A stretch of DNA of 64,000 nt, taken from positions 4,224,001 to 4,288,000 of the forward strand of contig CM000153.2 of the NCBI GenBank assembly GCA_000004695.1, given 5' to 3'. The notes under the pieces were generated by a model. The model did no database searches. It saw only the letters and a program-made list of their open reading frames with translations, and was not told the origin of the DNA. Both the position numbers and the translations under genes were made by a program. Source of the stretch: Dictyostelium discoideum. Taxonomy: Eukaryota. Shown piece by piece: positions 1 to 46,200 of the stretch; the first letter of the stretch is position 1; every line of letters starts with the position of its first letter.

Positions 1-1144
<1,144 letters not shown>

Positions 1145-1201
1145 TACGAAGATTGGTTTTAAAATTAATTTTTATAAATTTTTTTTATTTTTTCCCCAAA
1201 C

Positions 1202-9615: not shown

Positions 9616-10312
9616 CACAATAGAGTAGAGCTCTTAATTGATCTATTGATCTTGTGTAAATAAAAAAAAAATAAAAAATAAAAGTTTATTATTTAACTAA
9701 TTTAAATTACTAGTTTATTATTTAATATTTTGGTTAAAATAAAAAAAAAATAAAAAATAAAAAATAAAAAAATAAATCAAAAAAAAATAAGATATTAATA
9801 AAATTAAATTTTTTAATATTTATAAAATTAAATATAAATAAAAAAATAAAAAAATAAATAAAAAAATAAATAAATAAAAAAAATAAATAAATAAAAAAAA
9901 TCTTCTGATGGAACATTTAGAGGCTCCAAAAAAAAAAAAAAAAATAGAAAAGTGTTTAAAAACGAAAATTGAAAAAATTTTAAAAGTTAGGCTATTAATT
10001 TCGCAATAAAAATAAATATTCATATGATGATATCATGACTGTTATTAAAAAACAGTTCAAATTTATTATTATCCCTAATGTCATTCAATTCCAAAAAAGA
10101 AAAAAAATGTCCCTATCTCAAAAAATTTATTTTTTTTTTAATTTTTATTTTTATTTTTTTTTTTTTTAATTTATTTTAATTTTTTTTTTTTTTTTTTTAT
10201 ATTAATTAATTGGTGCACCAAAAGAAATATGTAAAGCGCATAAATTGTTAATAAATAAAAAGGGTAAAAAAAAAAAAAAAAAAAAAACCATAGTAAAAAC
10301 GTACGTTTGTTG

Positions 10313-10343
<31 letters not shown>

Positions 10344-10344
<1 letters not shown>

Positions 10345-11648
10345 TGAATACAAATAATAATTTTTCAAATGGGGAAGAAGTGTCAATCCATATTGGAACT
10401 GGTATAGATATTGCAGCAAAAGCATGGGGTCCAAAAGAGAGTTCACAAAAAATGCTTGCTTTACATGGTTGGTTGGATAATGCAAATACATTTGATTTCA
10501 TTGCTCCAATTCTCGCTGAAAAAGGTATTAGAATAATAGTATGTATATCTCCTGTGCACAATAATAAAAAAAATAAAAAAAATAAAAAAAAATAAAAAGT
10601 TATATAAAAAGTTTTTATATATAAGATATTAATTTTTTTTTTTTTTTATTTTTTTTTTTTTTTTATTTTTTTAATTAGGCAATTGATTTTATTGGACATG
10701 GATTATCACCACATAAACCAAGTTGGTGTAATTTATATTATACAGATTATATTACTCAAGTATTAGATGTTGCCGAAGCATTACAATGGAAAACCTTTTC
10801 AATAATGGGACATAGTATGGGTGCTGGTATAGCATCAATTGTTGCAGCAAGTATGCCACATTTAGTTGAACGTATCATTTGTTTAGATTTCATTGGTATA
10901 CTTTCAAAAGAACAAGATCAAATCAAAGCAATTCAATTCGCAATGCAAACTCGTACAACTATAAACAATAGAAAACCACATCTTTACAATAATAAACAAG
11001 CCATATTCGATAAATTAAAAGCAAACAATCCTTGGATTAAAGATGAAGCTGGTCAAAGATTATTAGATAGATCAATTGAATCTGTTATCTCTCCAACTAC
11101 TGGTGAGCAATGTTATAAACTTAGACATGATCCACGTTTAGTTGGTATGTTTATTATTATTATTATTATTAAATATTATCAATAATAATTTTTATTAATT
11201 TTTATTCATTTTTTTTTTTTTTTTTTTAGGACCATCAATTTTTATTATGCGTGAAGCAGAAGTTTTATTAATGTTGGATGAAATTCAATGTCCAGTTTTA
11301 TTGATTTGGGGTACGACATCATCTCAACAATTCCAAATTAAAAAGAATTGGACACAAATCATGGAAGGTAGAATGTCACATATAAAGAATTTAAAACAAT
11401 TGGTTGTACCAGGTTCTCATCATTTCCATATGGAAAATACTTCTGCATTCTCTCAAGATATTTTAGAATTTATGTTTGAAGAAAAGGATCTCTCTTTTAC
11501 ACCATCATCAACTACTCAGCAGCAACAACAACAGCAACAATCAGCTGAAAATAAAAAGGGTGATAATCATAATCAAATAGCTGAACAAGATTTATCAACT
11601 TCAAATACTTCTTCACCAATTATTTCAAAACCAAAACCCAATTTGTAA
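10344..11648 (+). CDS. Alpha/beta-hydrolase fold serine hydrolase, SERHL (serine hydrolase-like) type, about 359 aa. Exons: 10344..10538, 10679..11144, 11230..11648.
   Basis: ALHGWLDNANTFDFIAPILAEKGIRII|AIDFIGHGLS is reconstructed across intron 1 (GTATGT donor, ttaattag acceptor). Nucleophile elbow GHSMGAG. Catalytic-His region PGSHHFHMEN in exon 3. Intron 2 donor G|GTATGT is phase 1 and rejoins as G-PSIFIMREAE. All phases are consistent. Confidence 0.8.
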
Positions 11649-38350: not shown

Positions 38351-40126
38351 ATGTTTGAAATTAATAACAATAATAATAGCAATATTAAAATAATTAAAAG
38401 TAATATAATTTTTAAAAAGATATTAGAATATTGTTGGGAACAAGATGATTTAAAGAAATTATTCCATTGGAGTAATCATACAAAACTTGAAGATCCTTCA
38501 TTTGGAGATTTAATTAAACATACTCAAATTAGAGAGGCAACAAAATGGAAATTAAGTTTAATGAGAGTATCATATCAATTTTTAACAATAATTTTATCAA
38601 ATTTTGAGTTTAATCTTTCAAATTCAAAGTTTTTTCAACTTTTAGCTGAAAAAGAGAATCAACAATCACTTGATTCACATTCTGAAAATAAATTTGAAAC
38701 AACAAATACTTCAAAAACAGATAAAAATAATTTAGATGAATTATTTAAAAAACAAAAATTTTATTCAATGGAAGATGATATGATTAATATTATTGATAGT
38801 TATGAAAGTTTTGGAGATCAATGGTTTATTGAAACATTTGGAAATTTAAGTCAATGTTTTTTATATCTAAATGAAGAATCATTATTTAATAAAAACTTTT
38901 TTAAAGTAATTTCAATGATTGGTTCAACTAGAAATAATAATAATAATAATTTAGATGATGATGATAATGATGATGATAATTGTTCAATTACTTTAATTTT
39001 TCAATATTCATTTGAAAATCGTAAAAGTATTGATTTTAATGTTACAAAATTATTATTTTATTATGAACATGAAATTATGAATCGAGATAAAAAGAAATTA
39101 ACATCAAATATTAAAACATTAATATTTGAATTTATGTCATCGATGTATATCAATCCATATATGGTATATTCTCAAAAATTATTTTATGAATGTGGCTTAG
39201 AAAATTCAGTTAAAAGTATTTATGCATTTAATCAACCTCATTTAACATTTTTACCATACTTTTTCAGAGATTGTAAACAAATAGAATTAATGAGTCTTCA
39301 TACTGATTATCAAAATACTTACGGTAGAGCAATTAATAATGTATCACAATTTTCAAATAAACTTCAAGAAATGTCATTATCAATACTTGATGATAATTTA
39401 ATAGATGAATATGTACCGAATATCGGTTATTATTTCTCACCAATTGAAAATCCACCACCAAAACATTTCACTTTAAATATCATATTAAAAGATGATCAAA
39501 TGTGTAATGACATATTTGGTAGTGGTGGTTTCAATGATAAAAATAATAATTCAGTATTAGAATCATTATCAATTTCAATTGATAAATTGAATTTAAAATT
39601 TTTTAAACCAATAGAGAATAATAATAATAATAATAATAAATTATTTCCAAATTTAATTAATAAATTTTCAATTAGATTTTATTTTAGTTATATGTCAACA
39701 CCATTGGATGATATTAATTATTTTTCAAAATTTTTCTCAAGTAATGATTTTCAAAATGTTAAATATTTTAATTTTACAATTTTAATTGATTTTAAAAAAA
39801 CTCAAACTATCAATATAAATACCCTTTCTGATGAAGATCAATTATTAGAAATTTTGTTTGAAAAAGGTTTAAAATATTCAAGTTTACAATTCATTTCTAT
39901 TGATTTTAAATATGATTATATTGTTGGTGGTAAATGTTTATCTTTTAATTTATTATCAAAATTATTAAACTCAATTTCTTCAAATAAAAATATAAAAGGT
40001 ATTTTATTTGCTGGTTTAGATATATCCATTACAAATCTTCCTGATCAATTACTTAATTTTTCACTTTATCCTTTTTCTTTAAATGAAAATGAAAATAAAA
40101 AATCAATTTACTATTTTATTCAATAA
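38351..40126 (+). CDS. Hypothetical protein, 591 aa, Asn/Phe-rich, no recognisable domain
   Basis: Continuous ORF with ATG at 38351. Low-complexity but non-repetitive composition. It may belong to the same amoeba-specific family as 19076..20413. Confidence 0.5.
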   Translation: MFEINNNNNSNIKIIKSNIIFKKILEYCWEQDDLKKLFHWSNHTKLEDPSFGDLIKHTQIREATKWKLSLMRVSYQFLTIILSNFEFNLSNSKFFQLLAEKENQQSLDSHSENKFETTNTSKTDKNNLDELFKKQKFYSMEDDMINIIDSYESFGDQWFIETFGNLSQCFLYLNEESLFNKNFFKVISMIGSTRNNNNNNLDDDDNDDDNCSITLIFQYSFENRKSIDFNVTKLLFYYEHEIMNRDKKKLTSNIKTLIFEFMSSMYINPYMVYSQKLFYECGLENSVKSIYAFNQPHLTFLPYFFRDCKQIELMSLHTDYQNTYGRAINNVSQFSNKLQEMSLSILDDNLIDEYVPNIGYYFSPIENPPPKHFTLNIILKDDQMCNDIFGSGGFNDKNNNSVLESLSISIDKLNLKFFKPIENNNNNNNKLFPNLINKFSIRFYFSYMSTPLDDINYFSKFFSSNDFQNVKYFNFTILIDFKKTQTININTLSDEDQLLEILFEKGLKYSSLQFISIDFKYDYIVGGKCLSFNLLSKLLNSISSNKNIKGILFAGLDISITNLPDQLLNFSLYPFSLNENENKKSIYYFIQ

Positions 40127-40644
40127 ATAAATTAATAAATAAAAAAAATAAAAAAATAAAAAAATAAAAAAATAAAAAATAAATAATAATATAGAAATAA
40201 TTGTTTTTTTTTACTAGTAAATTGCCACCACAGAACTTTTTTTTTTTCTTTTTTAAACATTCAAAAAAAAGAAAAAAAAAAAATTTCTTTGGGGCACAAA
40301 AAAAAAAAAAAAAAAAAAAATTTTCATAGCCACCCATCCCATATTAGAACCCCATCAAGACTTTGATTTCGTGGTATACTGCTAATTTCAAAAAAAAAAA
40401 AAAAAAGGAAAAAAAAAAAAATTTCTTTGGGGCACAAAAAAGGAGAAGCAAAAAAAAATTTCCTAGCTTTTAAAGACAGCAATTTTTTTTTTTATTTTTA
40501 TTTTTACTTTTTTTTTTTTTTTTCTTAGACCCTAGGGTCTAGTGTTTTATTTTTAATTTTTTTATTTTTAAAATAATTTTTTTTTTTTCTTTTTTAAACA
40601 TTTTATTCATTTCTATAATCGATCACATAAAAAAAAAAAAAAAA

Positions 40645-41378
40645 ATGAGAAAGTTTTCAATTATTTCATTATTAGTTTTCATGGCAGTATTTGCCTTGAT
40701 TACAGTATCTTATTCAAGTAAGTATTTTTTTTTTTTCTTAAAAAAAAATAAATAAATAAAAACAAAACAAAAATAATTAATAAAAAAAAAAATTTATTTA
40801 TAGAATCTTGGTCTCATATTAACTCTTTGGCTGAATATACTGATGGTTCATCAGAGTGGGTAGCCTTTTTAAATTGGTATCCTCTTAAAGTTGTAGACTC
40901 ATTAAATGGGGTAACTGTAAAATATACTGATTTTGAATCAAAGAATCTTTCTGGAAATATTGATTTAAAGAATTTTATTCAACTTTGTAATGCCTCATTA
41001 GCTTTTGCAATTTTGGCATGGATTGGATCGCTTGCAATGATTGTATTATCTATAGCCGACATAATTGAAATCAAACTCCCACCAATTGGTAAATTTTTAG
41101 GTTGGATTGTATTCTTGTTTAGTTTGCTATCCTTCCTAATTTATTTAGGTACTCCTGCAGCAAAGAGAAAAGATTGTGATAACAATTTTGATAATTGTGA
41201 AAGTCTCTATTTCTACCAAAAAAAATTCATCGGTACATTTACCGGTTATGTAGATGAAAGGGTTGTAGAATTTAAATATGGACCATCAGCCGGTTGGAAT
41301 TGTATAGTCATTGCTTGTGCAGTTTCTTTATTAGGTTCTGTATTTAACCTCTTCTTTTTCAATCATCAAAATGTATAA
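40645..41378 (+). CDS. Small 4-TM (signal peptide plus 3 TM) membrane protein, copy A of a tandem pair, about 215 aa. Exons: 40645..40717, 40804..41378.
   Basis: Exon 1 MRKFSIISLLVFMAVFALITVSYS, donor A|GTAAGT (phase 1). Acceptor tttatag|. Exon 2 ...SWSHINSLAEYTDGSSEWVAFLNWYPLK...LCNASLAFAILAWIGSLAMIVLSIADII...FLGWIVFLFSLLSFLIYLG...WNCIVIACAVSLLGSVFNLFFFNHQNV*. The track 'M' at 40827 is a TTG. Confidence 0.7.
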
Positions 41379-41698
41379 ACTTAATTAATTAAAATAATAA
41401 ATAAATAAATAAATAAAAAAAAAAAAAAAAAAAAAACAAAATTTTATAAAGTAAAATAAATTTTAAAGCAAATTGTTTATTTTGTTTTTATTTAATGTTT
41501 ATTTAATATTTATTTAATGATTCCCAAAATTTTATGAAGTTTGATACTGTATGTTAGACAATTTTAATTTTGAATAAAGCAAAAAAAAAAAAAAAAAAAA
41601 ATTAAAAATTGAAAATTATAAGTAGAAAATGAAAATAAAAAATTATAAATAGAAAATTGAAAAAATAGAAAAAAGATTATTTTATTTATTTTTTATTG

Positions 41699-41736
<38 letters not shown>

Positions 41737-41900
41737 TGTCCAAGAAAAAAAAGGATTTTTTGACACATTAAATTACAAGACTTTTTTTTTTTCATGATTT
41801 TTTTTTTTTTTTTTTGTTTAATTTTTTTGATTTTTTTTTTTTTTTTTAAAATCATTTTATTCTTAAAAAAAAAAAAAAAAAAAATCAAGTTAAAATAAAA

Positions 41901-42640
41901 ATGAGAAAATATTCAATTATTTCTTTATTAGTTTTCATGGCAGTATTTGCTTTGATAACTGTATCTTATGTAAGTAAGTATTTATTTAATAGTTGAAAAA
42001 ATAAAAAAATAAAAAAATAAAATTAATTAAAAAAAAAAATAAAAAAAAAAAAATAAATCAAAATTTAATTTTAGAACCTTGGTCTTATATAAATGAATTG
42101 AGTACCAATGATCCGCTTAAGTGGTATCCATATGTTGAATGGTACCCTCTTAAAGCTACATTTTTTGGTGGAATGACTGTAAAATATACAAATTTTGATT
42201 CACAAGCCAACTTAAAGTATTTTATTCAACTTTGTAATGCTTCATTAGCATTTGCAATTTTGGCATGGATTGGATCTATTGTAATGATTATAATATCAAT
42301 AGCTGACATAATGGAAAAAAAAATCCCAGAAATTTGTAAATTTTTAGGTTGGATTGTATTCTTGTTTAGTTTGTTATCCTTTTCAATTTATTTAGGTACT
42401 CCTTCAGCAAAGATAAAGGATTGTAGAATGAGTTTTTTGGGTTCAAAAGATTGTGATACACTTCCTATTTACCAACAAAGATTAATTGGTACATATATCG
42501 ATTACAATCGCCAATATGAAAGGGAAGTAGAATATAAATTTGGATTATCAGCTGGTTTGATTTCTATTGTCATCGCTTGTGCAGTTTCTTTATTTGGTTC
42601 CATATATAACCTCTTCTTTTTCAACCATCAAAATGTATAA
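41901..42640 (+). CDS. Paralogue (copy B) of the 40645 gene, about 212 aa. Exons: 41901..41973, 42075..42640.
   Basis: Exon 1 MRKYSIISLLVFMAVFALITVSYV, with the second GTAAGT giving phase 1 as in copy A. Acceptor aattttag|. Exon 2 ...PWSYINELSTNDPLKWYPYVEWYPLK...LCNASLAFAILAWIGSIVMIIISIADIM...FLGWIVFLFSLLSFSIYLG...ISIVIACAVSLFGSIYNLFFFNHQNV*. It has the same intron position and phase and about 60% identity to copy A. Confidence 0.7.
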
Positions 42641-43182
42641 AATAAATAAATAAATAAAAAAAAATAATAAAATAAAAAAAAAGTGATTTGTTAAGTGAAA
42701 TAACTTTTAATACCAATTTGTTAACAAATTAATGATTATTAATATAATTCGAATAAAAATTAATAAATATTAAACAAGTAATAATAAAAAAAAAAAAAAA
42801 AAATTGATAATTAAATAAAAAGAGATTTATGGTGTGAATTATCTTTTTATAAATAGGTATTTAATAATATCTATTCAAAATTTTTTAAAAATTATTTATT
42901 TAAGTTTATCTTAGATATAATGGTGTGTAATTACTTGTGTGTTCAATACCAAAAAAAAAAAAAAAAAAAAAAAAAATCAAGTTATCTCTGAGATACTAAT
43001 TCTAATTAAATTGCCAATTTTTTTTTTTTATCAAAACAAATAAAAAAAAAAATAAAAATAATTAAAAAAAAAAAAAAAAAAAAACAATCGATAAGATTTA
43101 AACAAACACTGAAAAAGATATTATTAATAAACTTGAACAATAAATTTATTGTGAAAGATATATGTTAATTTGGTTATTTATT

Positions 43183-43267: not shown

Positions 43268-46200
43268 TTAATTTTCATAAGTTCTATTTTGTTCTTGTTC
43301 ATCCAATAAGATGTGAGCAGGCATTTTTTTACCAAGACCACCTCTCTTTTTAATGACTATAAAAACGATAGCACCAACACCAATAATAACAACGACAACA
43401 ATGACGACAACGGCAATGATACCATTTTTGGAGATATTAACATGAATTCCTCCTTTCTTTGGTGGTTGACATTTAGAGTATAAATCACTATCGACAGTGT
43501 TATCATATTTAATGATTCTCCAAGTTTCAGTTGAACCATTATTTACCTTTGTAATTAATAATGGAGTGGAAAGGTCAGTGTTTGTGGTATCAAAAGTTTC
43601 GAAACTCCAACCGGCTGGGAAGTAATAAACATTTGAATTATCACTTTCTTTTGATAATGTAGTTAAATTTAATCCATCAATGTTTGTATAGGTGGTTGAA
43701 ATTGTAAATTGATTCAAATAGGATTGATCAGTGAATAATCTTGCAATTGAATTATCACCAAAGAAGTATTTGTTATAATAAGCATTTGAAAATGGACCAT
43801 CTGATTTACTACCATTCAATGAAATGTTTGCAATATTCATTGATGAATCGGTGAAACATAATTCAACACCATCAACTTTATTGGTGTATTTATAGGATTC
43901 TGCTAATTTATCTTTACTATATTTCCAAATGACATTATTTGATTTTGTTATAATACCATCTTTATCTGTATTTGTTACTTGAATATTAATTGTAAAAGTT
44001 TTTAATACTTTTGGATGTTTTTTAGTATCAATAGTTTGTAAAGTAAATTCTTTATCAAATGATTTTGGACCATATGGAACATCATCATCGTCATCATCAT
44101 GATCATTAACTTGTTGTTCTAAATTATCAGTTTTAATTTCATCTTCTTCATCTTTATCCTTTTCATCGTCATCATCATCATCATCATCATCATTTTCTAT
44201 TTTTACAATTGTACAATTTGTTGGAATATTAACATTTGTAAGAGTAGAAGTTGAGTATGAATAAAAATCAATGGTTTGAATTAAAGTAGTTAAAGATTCA
44301 GATTGATTAATTAAAGAGATTGTAATATTAATTGGTGAAGCTGATTCTCCATTGGTTGACCAAGTATGAACAATAGCATGAGTTGAATTTGTTGAACTCC
44401 ATTGATGAATTGTATCTGTGAGTTTTGAAAAAGTCTTTGGTAAAGTTGAAATATCAGATAATTGATTAGCCAATGTTGAAGAGTAGTGATATTGATTTTT
44501 AACATTCTCAAATGTTTTACATTTATGGTCGTTGTTTGTTGAGCCCCATTGGGTAACTGATTGATTCTTATTATAGACTGAATATAAATCTGATGAATGA
44601 TATCTACCAATGGTAGTAGAGGTAGTATCAATTGAAGAATAAATCTCTTGATATTGTTGAGTATAACCATATTTCAAATTATTAATTGTAATCATTGAAT
44701 CATAGGTAGTTGGTAAAGTTGGAATACAAGATTCTTCATTAAAATCTTTAATCTTTGTTGGAATTGAAATAATATCAAATAAGAATATATCTATTTCTTT
44801 CTTTGTTGTTGTTGTTGTTGTTGATTCTTCATTTGAAGAAGTTGTAATAATTTCAACAGCAACTGGAATTGACATTGTTAAACTATTTAAACCATGTCTG
44901 AAAAGGAATTGCCAACCTCTTGCAAAAGTGTATAAATTAACAGATTTATTATTATCGATAGCTGTATTCCATTGGTCAACAGCAACTGAACGTCTAGTTG
45001 TTCTAGTAACAAATGTCCATTGGAGATTTGATGCATTTGTTAAGATTTCAATGACAGTTTCATCTATTAAATCACTTGTTTTAATTTTATTATTATTACA
45101 AGACAATGTGAATGAATCAACATTGAATGAATTTAAACCATTATTTGAAATACGTGAATAAGTTTCACCTTTTGTTTGTTCGATAATGAAAGCATCCATT
45201 TGTAAACTTTGATCATGATACCAATTATTTACACTATTTAATGAGGAGTCTACAACTTCTTCAAAGACTGCTGAAAATTCTGTATTGTTTAATGAAAGGG
45301 TAGTGGCATCTTCTAATTTTAAATCTTTTGGAAATTCAAATGATCCATTATCTATTGGTAAATCTGGGCATTTGTCATTTTCACAATCTGGTTTAGCAAA
45401 TGAACTTGGTAATGCTTCTAATAAAGTCCAACCTACAAATCCAATGTTTACATCAACTGGTTTACTTTTACCATCAAATCCAACATCACCTTTGAAAATG
45501 ATACGAACTGGAATATTATTTGGAAGGGAAATATATGTGGTAATTTTAGCGTTGATTTCTACTGTGATATTAACATCGCTATTTACAATATTTTCATAAC
45601 TACCAAATGTTTCAACAATTTCTTTTTCTAAAATACCATCAAATGTACATTCAGTTGTAATTGGATTATTTTCTTTTAATCCTGATAATAATTTCATATT
45701 TAATTTATTAATTGTATTTTCTTCATTAGGTGTTGGTGTTTGTGAATCAGTTGATGATGGTGATGATGAATCAGTTGATGATGGTGATGATGAATCAGTT
45801 GATGATGGTGATGATGAATCAGTTGATGATGATGATGATGATGATGATGAATCAGTTGATGATGATGATGATGATGAATCAGTTGATGATGATGATGATG
45901 ATGAATCAGTTGATGATGATGATGATGAATCAGTTGATGATGATGATGATGAATCAGTTGATGATGATGATGAATCAGTTGAGGATTCAGTATACAAAAT
46001 TGAACATTTAGTTTTTCCATCTTTGTGTTCACATGTAAATTTGGCACTATCAACATTACCAACCACTTGGTTAAAACATGATTGACCACCTAGTGACTTG
46101 ATTAATGTAATATCGATTTCACCAGTTAAATCAAATTTTGAAATAGCTTGGATTGGTGTTGTAATAGTATCATCGATTGAATTTTCAAATACTGAACAAC

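Follow-up and report, generated by a model that had tools for sequence, protein, structure and literature searches.

Two adjacent genes of Dictyostelium discoideum, DDB_G0286265 (copy 1) and DDB_G0286267 (copy 2), both annotated as "hypothetical proteins", are best read as members of a new divergent family with a predicted claudin-type fold, rather than as proteins of an orphan fold. They lie in the window, that is, the whole stretch of 64,000 nucleotides that was analysed. The explanation that we favour for all the evidence jointly, with somewhat better than even confidence, is that the tandem paralogs encode claudin-type tetraspans acting as lateral in-membrane organisers or auxiliary subunits. 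The claudin link rests on predicted structure, and no member reaches the curated Pfam threshold for any claudin-type family. To our knowledge, no claudin-type proteins have been reported from Dictyostelium. Literature searches on claudin-like proteins and Dictyostelium, and on the claudin superfamily, amastins and SUR7, found no description of this family, and a full-text search with three DDB_G identifiers gave no matches. A family with a predicted fold and a testable topology can now be defined from these two hypothetical proteins and some 45 database orphans, and it has a robust and unexpected sequence link to the archaeal Thermoplasmata.

The features of the two genes are listed in Table 1. 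The spliced products, 215 aa for copy 1 and 212 aa for copy 2, are 100% identical to the AX4 annotation, and the tandem paralogous genes with a shared two-exon structure described by the initial annotation are thereby confirmed. The two proteins are 64% identical (BLASTP, E = 4e-93), slightly more than the approximately 60% first given, and the motifs LCNASLAFAILAWIGS, FLGWIVFLFSLLSF and NLFFFNHQNV, proposed as common to the pair, are indeed present in both copies. The introns are in phase 1 as claimed. Both follow nucleotide 73 and split codon 25 as A/AA, and this position is shared by D. firmibasis and by a divergent strain of D. discoideum. Copy 2 had been said to use the downstream GTAAGT donor of a duplicated GTAAGTAAGT. 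The use of this donor holds, since splicing from the GT that lies upstream within GTAAGTAAGT (41970) puts the product out of frame and runs into stop codons; the duplication does not, since in AX4 the GTAAGTAAGT of copy 2 differs from copy 1 by a 2-nt substitution, TCA to GTA (S24V), with no insertion. Three tandem GTAAGT units occur in one divergent strain. The worry that one copy might be a pseudogene was not realised: different strains keep both open reading frames and the intron position intact, and copy 2 appears in published differential-expression lists.

Table 1. Positions of the two genes and their duplicated flanks in the window.
Feature	Position	Strand	Basis or remark
Copy 1 duplicated 5' flank, promoter-proximal, ~100 bp	40545..40644	+	blastn of the two gene regions
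Copy 1 (DDB_G0286265) exon 1: Met1-Ser24 and first base of codon 25; TM1	40645..40717	+	product identity
Copy 1 intron, 86 nt, phase 1, GTAAGT...TATAG	40718..40803	+	splicing
Copy 1 exon 2 including stop: ECL1 beta-strands, TM2, TM3, ECL2 with C149/C156, TM4, C-terminal NHQNV (predicted elements)	40804..41378	+	
Copy 1 duplicated 3' flank	41379..41477	+	within the 977-column blastn alignment
Copy 2 duplicated 5' flank	41802..41900	+	blastn
Copy 2 (DDB_G0286267) exon 1; ends ...TAT GTA A directly before the second GTAAGT	41901..41973	+	product identity
Copy 2 intron, 101 nt, phase 1	41974..42074	+	cryptic donor upstream at 41970 gives a frameshift
Copy 2 exon 2 including stop	42075..42640	+	
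Copy 2 duplicated 3' flank	42641..42722	+	blastn

The pair goes back to the duplication of a 0.93-kb unit (approximate length) that reaches from roughly 100 bp of 5' flank through the two exons and their intron to roughly 90 bp of 3' flank. Positions 40545-41477 align with 41802-42722 at 73.6% identity over 977 columns (blastn, E = 3e-172). The duplication took place in the D. discoideum lineage after the split from D. firmibasis, because the syntenic locus of D. firmibasis, with the same 421-aa and 932-aa neighbours, holds a single copy, and because dS is lower between the paralogs (0.40) than to D. firmibasis (0.77-0.83). Between D. discoideum strains that carry the pair, dS is 0.08-0.12. 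In an NJ tree of the proteins, copy 2 branched outside all the copy-1 orthologs, with a bootstrap of only 17-20%, and synteny and dS were preferred to this tree.

An exhaustive HMMER search yielded 45 family matches at E <= 1e-3; its profile was narrow, being derived from close relatives within Dictyostelium, and may have missed other eukaryotic ones. All matches of identified source come from dictyostelids (Dictyostelium, Polysphondylium, Cavenderia, Heterostelium, Tieghemostelium, Acytostelium and Synstelium), except two from one metagenomic contig. The proteins belong to a multigene family whose genes often stand in tandem arrays; it occurs in each dictyostelid genome that was identified from the matches and is absent from Pfam. 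We define the dictyostelid DDB_G0286265-like family by a length of about 200-230 aa, four TMs, a W immediately following TM1, a D-C...C pattern within ECL2 and a G-W opening TM4, and both window proteins possess all of these features. Among 35 dictyostelid sequences, conservation is complete or at least 90% at W27, D148-C149, C156 and W189, all of which are present in both window proteins. The initial annotation had noted two conserved Cys in the second extracellular loop, and these are borne out. They lie between hydrophobic segments 3 and 4 (C149/C156 in copy 1, C141/C151 in copy 2) and are kept across the 35 homologs, C156 being invariant and C149 conserved in at least 90%. The pair may act as a disulfide that staples loop 2. 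The only Cys near ECL1 is C86 (copy 1) or C78 (copy 2), at the start of TM2, and ECL1 proper has none. Cytoplasmic sequence is nearly absent, with a 3-residue N-terminus, a loop of about 10 residues and a 5-residue tail (NHQNV), and both termini would be cytoplasmic. The chain is predicted to run from TM1 through a four-stranded ECL1 beta-sheet into TM2, to turn in the cytoplasm within 10 residues, and to continue with TM3 and its helical extension, a loop-2 beta-hairpin and TM4.

That no named sequence family claims these 4-TM proteins, as first reported, was confirmed by profile searches. Nothing exceeded a curated Pfam cutoff in the two window proteins or in sets of 12, 35 and 30 individual family members. 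Copy 1 had no Pfam match even at E <= 10, and the best Pfam match of copy 2 was SUR7, with 13.3 bits against a cutoff of 29.6. A confident profile match to a known family, the result that had been named as speaking against the initial annotation, did not appear at this level. PDB sequence searches with a single protein and two profiles gave no meaningful match; one match to CALHM5 over the DC...C...GW region (E = 0.85) was judged to be due to chance. Across the wider family, sub-threshold Pfam matches clustered on SUR7, Amastin, Claudin_2, Fig1, Clc-like and L_HMGIC_fpl, most frequently on SUR7 (9 of 35 members) and Amastin (5 of 35).

The named families compare as follows. First, for claudin/PMP22/EMP/MP20 (PF00822, PF13903), neither copy gave a match, and the best score in the wider family was 17.0 bits for Claudin_2 against 29.1. 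By regular expression the ECL1 signature W-GLW-C-x(7-9)-C is absent from both proteins, as is the PDZ-binding -YV tail of classic claudins, only about five residues (NHQNV) following TM4. Second, for SUR7/PalI (PF06687), dictyostelid members score 16-17 bits and the overall best, an archaeal relative (P0056), scores 28.0, all below the 29.6-bit cutoff. Third, for Amastin (PF07344), the window proteins have no match and the family best is 24.4 bits (P0026, Cavenderia) with a cutoff of 27.2. Fourth, the 32.1-bit cutoff of DUF4064 (PF13273) was not reached, and the window proteins gave no match. Fifth, tetraspanins (PF00335) are marked by a large, helical ECL2 that carries a CCG motif and by a small ECL1; neither window protein has adjacent Cys, and ECL1 is the larger loop and is rich in beta-structure. 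Moreover, the UniRef name "MARVEL domain-containing protein" is attached to two D. purpureum members (P0013, P0016), and three family members have sub-threshold Pfam MARVEL matches, which would make the proteins four-TM components of vesicle trafficking or membrane apposition of the MAL, physin or occludin type. However, the best of these matches (24.3 bits) is below the 32.8-bit cutoff of PF01284, the window proteins have none, and the matches are out of register, with profile positions 72-135 of 135 (the last TM hairpin) aligned to TM1-TM2, residues 7-96. The model has a beta-sheet ectodomain and no MARVEL-type fold. With these out-of-register matches and the lower structural scores given below, we rejected the label and regard a MARVEL identity as extremely improbable.

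The AlphaFold2 model (pLDDT 86.2, pTM 0.83) contains strands at residues 28-35, 41-48, 53-56, 61-64, 168-174 and 177-185, and pLDDT is only 61-73 in distal loop 1. The predicted structure has the hallmarks of the claudin fold, namely four TM helices and a beta-sheet ectodomain built from ECL1 and ECL2. In a Foldseek search of the PDB, the best 50 matches all contain a claudin-fold protein (best E = 2e-4), including TARP gamma-5, -7, -2 and -8, LHFPL4, DUOXA1, claudin-19 and -4 and a designed claudin fold; MP20 and claudin-15 also match the model. Structural scores were lower for a tetraspanin (10.4), MS4A (10.2) and MARVEL proteins (9.4-9.6), and a first model agreed. The initial annotation had left the proteins without any placement, which stands for sequence but not for fold, where the model best fits claudin-fold proteins.

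The model also bears on the N-terminus, where the initial annotation saw a signal peptide followed directly by the intron. The intron position is right, and the signal peptide is not: because both proteins have only four hydrophobic segments in total, the N-terminal one would be TM1 of the predicted four-helix bundle and not an extra cleaved peptide. It is packed into the bundle at pLDDT 90-97. Signal peptidase follows an established -3/-1 rule. One could still suppose that the proteins enter the secretory pathway, lose a signal peptide by cleavage and keep only three TM helices, in which case the match to the claudin fold would be an artefact of having modelled the uncleaved precursor. The sequence MRK plus 20 hydrophobic residues plus SYS/K, the small residues at -3/-1 in copy 1 and the intron directly after the segment agree with this. 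On the other hand, copy 2 has a Val at -1 (SYV/K), which is unfavourable for signal peptidase, and the segment is conserved throughout the family, including the archaeal relatives, in which the conserved PWY follows it. The claudin-fold alignments span 150-166 residues and need this segment, and we consider cleavage very unlikely.

If the claudin-type fold is accepted, several known systems can be compared. PMP22/EMP/MP20/claudin proteins, such as human MP20 (9cbv), mouse claudin-15 (4p79) and claudin-19 (3x29), resemble the modelled proteins in their left-handed four-TM bundle, small size, beta-sheet ectodomain from a long ECL1 plus ECL2, and a TM3 that reaches beyond the membrane. They differ in that the window proteins lack W-GLW-C-C and any Cys in ECL1, carry their Cys pair in a longer hairpin ECL2, have a 5-residue cytoplasmic tail with no PDZ motif and score nowhere near the Pfam thresholds. 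TARP/Ca-channel gamma subunits and LHFPL4 (GARLH4) are claudin-fold auxiliary subunits of AMPA, Cav and GABA-A channels and make lateral TM contacts with their partners, as proposed here; the window proteins have nothing like the long cytoplasmic C-tails and PDZ ligands of TARPs, and sequence identity is 11-12%. Fungal SUR7/PalI and kinetoplastid amastins are non-metazoan tetraspans generally regarded as claudin-like, and they too are multigene families, often in tandem, of surface proteins in unicellular eukaryotes. SUR7 and amastin proteins have conserved Cys in ECL1, whereas the window family has its conserved pair in ECL2 and scores below the curated cutoffs. Among DUF4064 proteins, AuxB of S. 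aureus is a 4-TM membrane adaptor with both termini inside that binds PknB and GpsB (PMC12505970). DUF4064 (PF13273) differs in having a profile of 102 positions and in being reported in the tetraspanin clan, not with the claudins.

As to function, the selection pattern is informative. TM omega is 0.07-0.26 in four of the five comparisons, and for the extracellular loops omega is 0.8-1.2 in the close comparisons and falls to 0.47-0.58 in those with D. firmibasis; the TM helices appear to be under strong purifying selection, while the ectodomain appears almost neutral. Such frozen helices beside nearly neutral ectodomains point to an in-membrane partner, although near-neutral loops could alternatively mean weak functional importance. 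Because there is almost no cytoplasmic sequence, the TMs are constrained and the ectodomain is near-neutral, the most likely mechanism would be lateral, in-membrane association through the TM bundle, as we infer from architecture and selection. By analogy with PMP22, Sur7, TARPs, LHFPL proteins and bacterial AuxB, the proteins probably function as organisers of membrane domains or as auxiliary subunits through lateral contacts. Paracellular barrier strands like those of classic claudins are probably not formed.

Dictyostelium forms a polarised tip epithelium, and true claudin-like junction or adhesion proteins could be considered, whose ectodomains bind in trans between multicellular-stage cells (for example in the tip epithelium or at the spore or stalk surface) and seal or glue them like claudins or MP20. 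The fold matches claudin-15, -19 and -4 and the adhesive lens protein MP20, and recognition and adhesion molecules commonly have fast-evolving ectodomains. The paralog DDB_G0284119 is strongly enriched in spores: Kin 2018 (PMC6198379, supplement 5) gives 137.6 TPM for spores, 4.3 for stalk, 0.2 for cup and 0 for vegetative cells. However, among the entries listed in the cup, stalk and spore lists of the same study only this paralog occurs and neither window gene does. Solitary, growing cells express copy 2, and its level drops on starvation, as DDB_G0286267 is in the suspension_DOWN Hr00 and Hr01 "gradual" lists of Rosengarten 2015 (PMC4403905, supplement 7). Moreover, the ECL1 W-GLW-C-C motif is missing, a 5-residue tail could not scaffold a junctional plaque, and the hosts of the archaeal relatives are not known to form tissues. 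We therefore hold a junctional role to be rather improbable and prefer lateral organisers, of which at least copy 2 would act in growing, unicellular amoebae. Copy 1 has no expression record in the published tables searched, and neither window gene is in the 2026 life-cycle proteome or the eLife 2020 dedifferentiation tables. The family has one spore-specific and one growth-phase paralog, and its lineage-wide expansion of putative claudin-fold tetraspans is a candidate set for adhesion, barrier or membrane-domain roles.

Outside the dictyostelids, the proteins closest in sequence form an uncharacterised four-TM family in archaea of the Thermoplasmata. A dictyostelid-only alignment and an archaeal-only alignment match with a probability of 99.5% (hhalign, E = 3.4e-22, 194 collinear columns). 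The dictyostelid HMM scores up to 71 bits on archaeal ORFs, with a maximum of 7 bits in the reversed-sequence control, and the archaeal HMM scores up to 67 bits on dictyostelid proteins (42 for copy 1 and 24 for copy 2; control maximum 19). Of the 21 archaeal loci that we found, one is in an Aenigmatarchaeota MAG and the other 20 belong to Thermoplasmata/Thermoplasmatota MAGs. The Thermoplasmata proteins, for example those encoded by the four tandem genes of locus L003 (JGI contig Ga0452208_035802), are collinear with the dictyostelid ones over all four TMs. The two families have in common PWY after TM1, an (A/T)xxAF-type start of TM2, P-x-A-x(2,3)-(D/E) after TM3, F-x-G in loop 2, WG-x3-GW before TM4, and an arrangement in tandem arrays. 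Unlike the dictyostelid family, the Thermoplasmata one has no Cys pair, no introns and long Pro-rich cytoplasmic tails (PPPPPQY-type), and the two separate cleanly into clades in 50 of 50 bootstraps.

These relatives complicate the superfamily assignment. All 10 archaeal proteins examined give weak, sub-threshold matches to DUF4064 (best E = 1.3e-7), the member scores seen, 19.8 and 27.2 bits, being below the cutoff, and one (P0058) carries a precomputed PF13273 label. The same 10 proteins match SUR7 in six cases (best 28.0 bits against 29.6), Amastin in four and PMP22_Claudin in two. Placement in a superfamily by sequence appears ambiguous, because the archaeal relatives lean to DUF4064, which is reported within the Pfam tetraspanin clan (PMC12505970). 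With archaeal nearest relatives and no other eukaryote at E <= 1e-3 in the exhaustive search, the dictyostelid proteins might instead be of prokaryotic origin, DUF4064/tetraspanin-clan proteins transferred horizontally from an archaeon to the dictyostelid ancestor, and the claudin likeness would then be convergent or an AlphaFold2 bias, with no evolutionary link to claudins, PMP22 or SUR7. The SUR7, Amastin and PMP22_Claudin matches of the archaeal proteins and the narrowness of the search profile argue against this, and we think it unlikely, though less so than a junctional role. If the claudin-type fold is instead genuine, it is possible, and we put this forward tentatively, that the fold is not a eukaryotic invention and that the Thermoplasmata and dictyostelid families share ancestry, via archaeal transfer or via an archaeal-derived lineage retained here and lost elsewhere. 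If this were true, the archaeal proteins would be the first prokaryotic members of the claudin fold, and a rare archaeon-to-amoeba transfer would have later expanded into a multigene surface-protein family. Should the archaeal proteins share the fold, either the origin of this architecture would move outside the eukaryotes or an unusual inter-domain transfer would be documented.

A GC-richer intergenic island lies upstream of copy 1. Rfam and tRNA scans of it gave nothing significant, the best Rfam match being a trypanosomatid snoRNA model (E = 0.47; 20 bits, where the gathering score is 45). The flanking genes offer no functional clue to the pair. The 591-aa and 932-aa neighbours matched no Pfam family, and the 421-aa neighbour is, by Pfam, an Acinus-like SAP/RRM/RSB protein.

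The flagged region encodes two proteins that are 100% identical to D. discoideum AX4 DDB_G0286265 (copy 1, 215 aa) and DDB_G0286267 (copy 2, 212 aa), both of which are annotated only as "hypothetical protein". The genes of the window are already annotated, and the novelty lies not in the locus but in its placement in an unrecognised, lineage-wide tetraspan family with a predicted claudin-type fold and archaeal sequence relatives, the archaeal connection being the main upside. A full-text literature search returned no paper naming these genes and none describing a claudin-type family in Dictyostelium.

We rebuilt both gene models from the raw sequence of this AT-rich window (about 20% GC). Together with the annotated proteins, the rebuilt models agree with the initial annotation in giving tandem paralogs of common two-exon structure, each with a single short AT-rich intron (86 nt in copy 1, 101 nt in copy 2) in phase 1, after nucleotide 73. 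The products share 64% identity (BLASTP E = 4e-93), near the roughly 60% first proposed, and every motif listed at that stage is common to both. A tblastn search of the whole window with both proteins found no third copy. The segment before the intron had been taken for a signal peptide, but there are only four hydrophobic segments and the N-terminal one is therefore TM1. Copy 2 does use the second of its two GTAAGT donors, as had been read; the first GT leads by frameshift into stop codons and premature termination, so some unproductive splicing of copy 2 is possible. The tandem donor had further been ascribed to a duplication; the repeat is there, but in AX4 it is a TCA->GTA substitution (S24V) relative to copy 1 and not an insertion. 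Coordinates are compiled in the table.

Table. Features of the tandem pair, its surroundings and its relatives (window coordinates unless a locus handle is given; residues for the predicted model)
Feature	Position	Strand	Remark
Copy 1	exons 40645-40717 and 40804-41378	+	rebuilt from raw sequence
Copy 2	exons 41901-41973 and 42075-42640	+	rebuilt from raw sequence
Tandem GTAAGT donors	41966-41979		copy 2; 4 nt apart
Three GTAAGT units	L005:6067-6090		divergent D. discoideum strain
Exact 32-bp direct repeat	40272-40303 = 40410-40441		contains TTTCTTTGGGGCAC; upstream of copy 1
Relatively GC-rich island	40321-40385		bracketed by 32-bp repeat
Exact 25-bp repeat	40237-40261 = 40578-40602		upstream of copy 1
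591-aa Asn-rich ORF	38351-40126	+	no Pfam family; between Acinus-like gene and copy 1
Conserved downstream neighbour	43268-46066	-	tail-to-tail with copy 2
Adjacent family genes	L002:8001-8889 and 10146-10943		D. purpureum pair
Adjacent family genes	001254/001255		D. firmibasis
Adjacent family genes	001163-001165		D. citrinum
Adjacent family genes	DFA_05858/05859		C. fasciculata
Four tandem archaeal paralogs	L003:8001-11807		266, 271, 275 and 227 aa; four-TM
TM1	residues 2-24		AlphaFold2 model
Four strands	residues 28-35, 41-48, 53-56, 61-64		AlphaFold2 model
TM2	residues 80-111		AlphaFold2 model; then short turn
TM3	residues 120-139		AlphaFold2 model; helical extension 141-152 with C149
Beta-hairpin	residues 168-174, 177-185		AlphaFold2 model
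TM4	residues 187-209		AlphaFold2 model

At the DNA level the copies are similar over 40545-41477 and 41802-42722 (73.6% identity, 977 columns), and the duplicated unit takes in about 100 bp before the ATG and about 90 bp after the stop. The syntenic locus of D. firmibasis holds a single copy with an identical intron position, flanked by orthologs of the 421-aa and 932-aa neighbours, and a divergent "D. discoideum" assembly carries both copies side by side. As the dS between the paralogs (0.40) falls between the values separating strains (0.08-0.12) and those to D. firmibasis (0.77-0.83), the duplication is dated by sequence divergence to after the D. firmibasis split and before the D. discoideum complex diverged. 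An older split of the copies in a protein NJ tree was given no weight, its bootstrap support being below 20%.

We then searched 1.84 billion representatives exhaustively by HMMER with a profile of close orthologs and obtained 45 proteins at E <= 1e-3, mostly 190-230 aa long and matched end to end. All hits of identified source are dictyostelid (D. purpureum, D. firmibasis, D. citrinum, Polysphondylium violaceum, Tieghemostelium lacteum, Cavenderia fasciculata, Heterostelium album, Acytostelium subglobosum and Synstelium polycarpum), with D. dimigraforme also among the close homologs. D. discoideum has at least one further member, DDB_G0284119 (P0065), outside the window. Conservation across 35 dictyostelid sequences falls on a Trp directly following TM1, an Asp-Cys and a second Cys in extracellular loop 2 (ECL2), and a Gly-Trp at the start of TM4. 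Dictyostelid genomes hold several paralogs each, often adjacent (examples in the table; proteins P0017/P0069, P0072-P0075 and P0024/P0033). These arrays in other species lie at loci without synteny to the window, so tandem duplication has happened repeatedly in the family. The family domain also occurs, usually C-terminally, in long database proteins beside unrelated domains: P0032 (2437 aa, Synstelium), P0039 (873 aa, ankyrin), P0040 (518 aa, glutamine amidotransferase), P0033 (549 aa, DUSP) and P0042 (622 aa). Most likely their gene models have been fused to a neighbouring gene, and they are not real multidomain proteins.

The initial annotation could place the pair in no named family, and at the sequence level this holds, no member reaching a curated Pfam cutoff. 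Copy 1 has no Pfam match even at E <= 10, the only match of copy 2 is SUR7 (13.3 bits against a cutoff of 29.6), and PDB searches with the protein and profiles gave no meaningful match. The sub-threshold matches of 35 members are not random: SUR7 is commonest (9/35), followed by Amastin and Claudin_2 (5 each), Fig1 and Clc-like (2 each) and L_HMGIC_fpl (1), all of which we take to belong to one claudin-type Pfam clan. Three members match MARVEL below threshold, with the last hairpin of the profile aligned to TM1-TM2 of the protein. Two D. purpureum members, P0013 (DICPUDRAFT_74847) and P0016 (DICPUDRAFT_147598), are named 'MARVEL domain-containing protein' in UniRef. This label is probably wrong, because neither has a Pfam match at E <= 0.01, the family's MARVEL matches are out of register and structural similarity to MARVEL is lower.

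AlphaFold2 with a 35-sequence alignment gave a model of pLDDT 86.2 and pTM 0.83, and the same topology came from 12 sequences (pLDDT 74.6); the distal part of extracellular loop 1 (ECL1) reaches only 61-73. The top 50 PDB targets in Foldseek are claudin-fold proteins only, including TARP gamma-5/-7/-2/-8, LHFPL4, DUOXA1, claudin-19/-4 and a designed claudin fold (best E 2e-4, target-normalised TM-score up to 0.72), and the predicted fold is therefore claudin-type. Unlike claudins, the dictyostelid family lacks the ECL1 W-GLW-C-C motif, bears its Cys pair in a longer ECL2 and has essentially no cytoplasmic sequence. We hold the family and fold assignment with high confidence.

Two weak hits of the exhaustive search (E = 1e-5 and 5e-4) come from one metagenomic contig (JGI Ga0452208_035802, L003), on which four tandem intron-less paralogs have a DUF87/DUF835/TrmB gene and an archaeal-type pilin as neighbours. 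Scanning the GTDB species genomes gave 21 loci, 20 in Thermoplasmata/Thermoplasmatota MAGs (some chromosome-level) and one in an Aenigmatarchaeota MAG; the archaeal loci carry the handles L003 and L006-L026. In hhalign, the dictyostelid-only and archaeal-only alignments matched with a probability of 99.5% (E = 3.4e-22) over 194 collinear columns, spanning all four TMs, PWY after TM1, P-x-A-x(2,3)-D/E after TM3, F-x-G and WG-x3-GW. With the dictyostelid HMM, archaeal ORFs reached 71 bits at negligible bias (19 ORFs at >=28 bits; reversed-sequence maximum 7), and with the archaeal HMM, dictyostelid proteins reached 67 bits (copy 1 42, copy 2 24; reversed-sequence maximum 19). Judged by these comparisons, the uncharacterised archaeal four-TM family and the dictyostelid one are clearly homologous. 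They form clean separate clades (50/50 bootstraps), and their kinship may reflect horizontal transfer or deep common ancestry. In contrast to the dictyostelid family, the archaeal proteins have no Cys pair, and they carry Pro-rich cytoplasmic tails, which in many members are long, C-terminal and bear PPPPPQY-like motifs; P0063 ends in a zinc-ribbon. Their weak Pfam matches are to DUF4064 (10/10), SUR7 (6/10, up to 28.0 bits), Amastin (4/10) and PMP22_Claudin (2/10). DUF4064, reported in Pfam's tetraspanin clan, includes S. aureus AuxB, a four-TM adaptor binding PknB and GpsB (PMC12505970).

The ORF and phase-1 intron are intact in all five genes examined. Over the whole gene, dN/dS within the species complex is fairly high at 0.5-0.8, with a signal strongly partitioned along the protein. 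Omega of the four TM helices is 0.07-0.26 in 4/5 comparisons, the copy-2 strain comparison giving 0.56 from nine changes only. For the two extracellular loops, close comparisons give 0.8-1.2 and those with D. firmibasis 0.47-0.58; a value of 2.0 is seen once, for ECL2 alone, on counts too small for a claim of positive selection. Conserved small or polar TM residues are N87, S89, S100, S107, D110, S131 and S134. With only about 18 cytoplasm-exposed residues per protein, almost frozen TM helices and a drifting ectodomain, the pair fits a tetraspan that would act through lateral contacts within the membrane, where it could organise a membrane domain, as Sur7 and PMP22 do, or alternatively tune a partner protein, as do TARP, LHFPL, DUOXA and AuxB. 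The exposed loops would then vary freely or under pressure from the environment. We offer lateral in-membrane action as a tentative reading that may well prove wrong.

Rosengarten 2015 (PMC4403905 supplement 7) lists DDB_G0286267 among the genes whose expression falls gradually during starvation in suspension, starting at 0 h and 1 h; copy 2 is therefore transcribed in growing cells, which counts against a role restricted to multicellular junctions. For copy 1, no record for or against expression was found in the published expression datasets searched. DDB_G0284119 shows strong enrichment in spores, at 137.6 TPM against 0.2 in cup, 4.3 in stalk and 0 in vegetative cells, and peaks at 20 h of development (Kin 2018, PMC6198379 supplement 5), so the family is deployed at several life stages; Rosengarten 2015 (PMC4403905 supplement 7) also lists this paralog as up-regulated on filters at 1-3 h.

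In the repeat region upstream of copy 1 (40237-40602), scans of the GC-rich island gave no tRNA and no significant Rfam match; the region could be a small local duplication or the remnant of an inserted element. At the syntenic locus of D. firmibasis, tblastn finds nothing corresponding to the 591-aa ORF, and the equivalent slot in the divergent D. discoideum strain holds a 668-aa gene (L005:1981-3987). The ORF thus looks lineage-specific and gained about when the duplication occurred. The downstream neighbour, a type-I membrane protein without a Pfam family, is at least 932 aa long and has one C-terminal TM helix, long (S)nTD repeats and an acidic D/E tract; it shares about 64% identity with the D. 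firmibasis ortholog.
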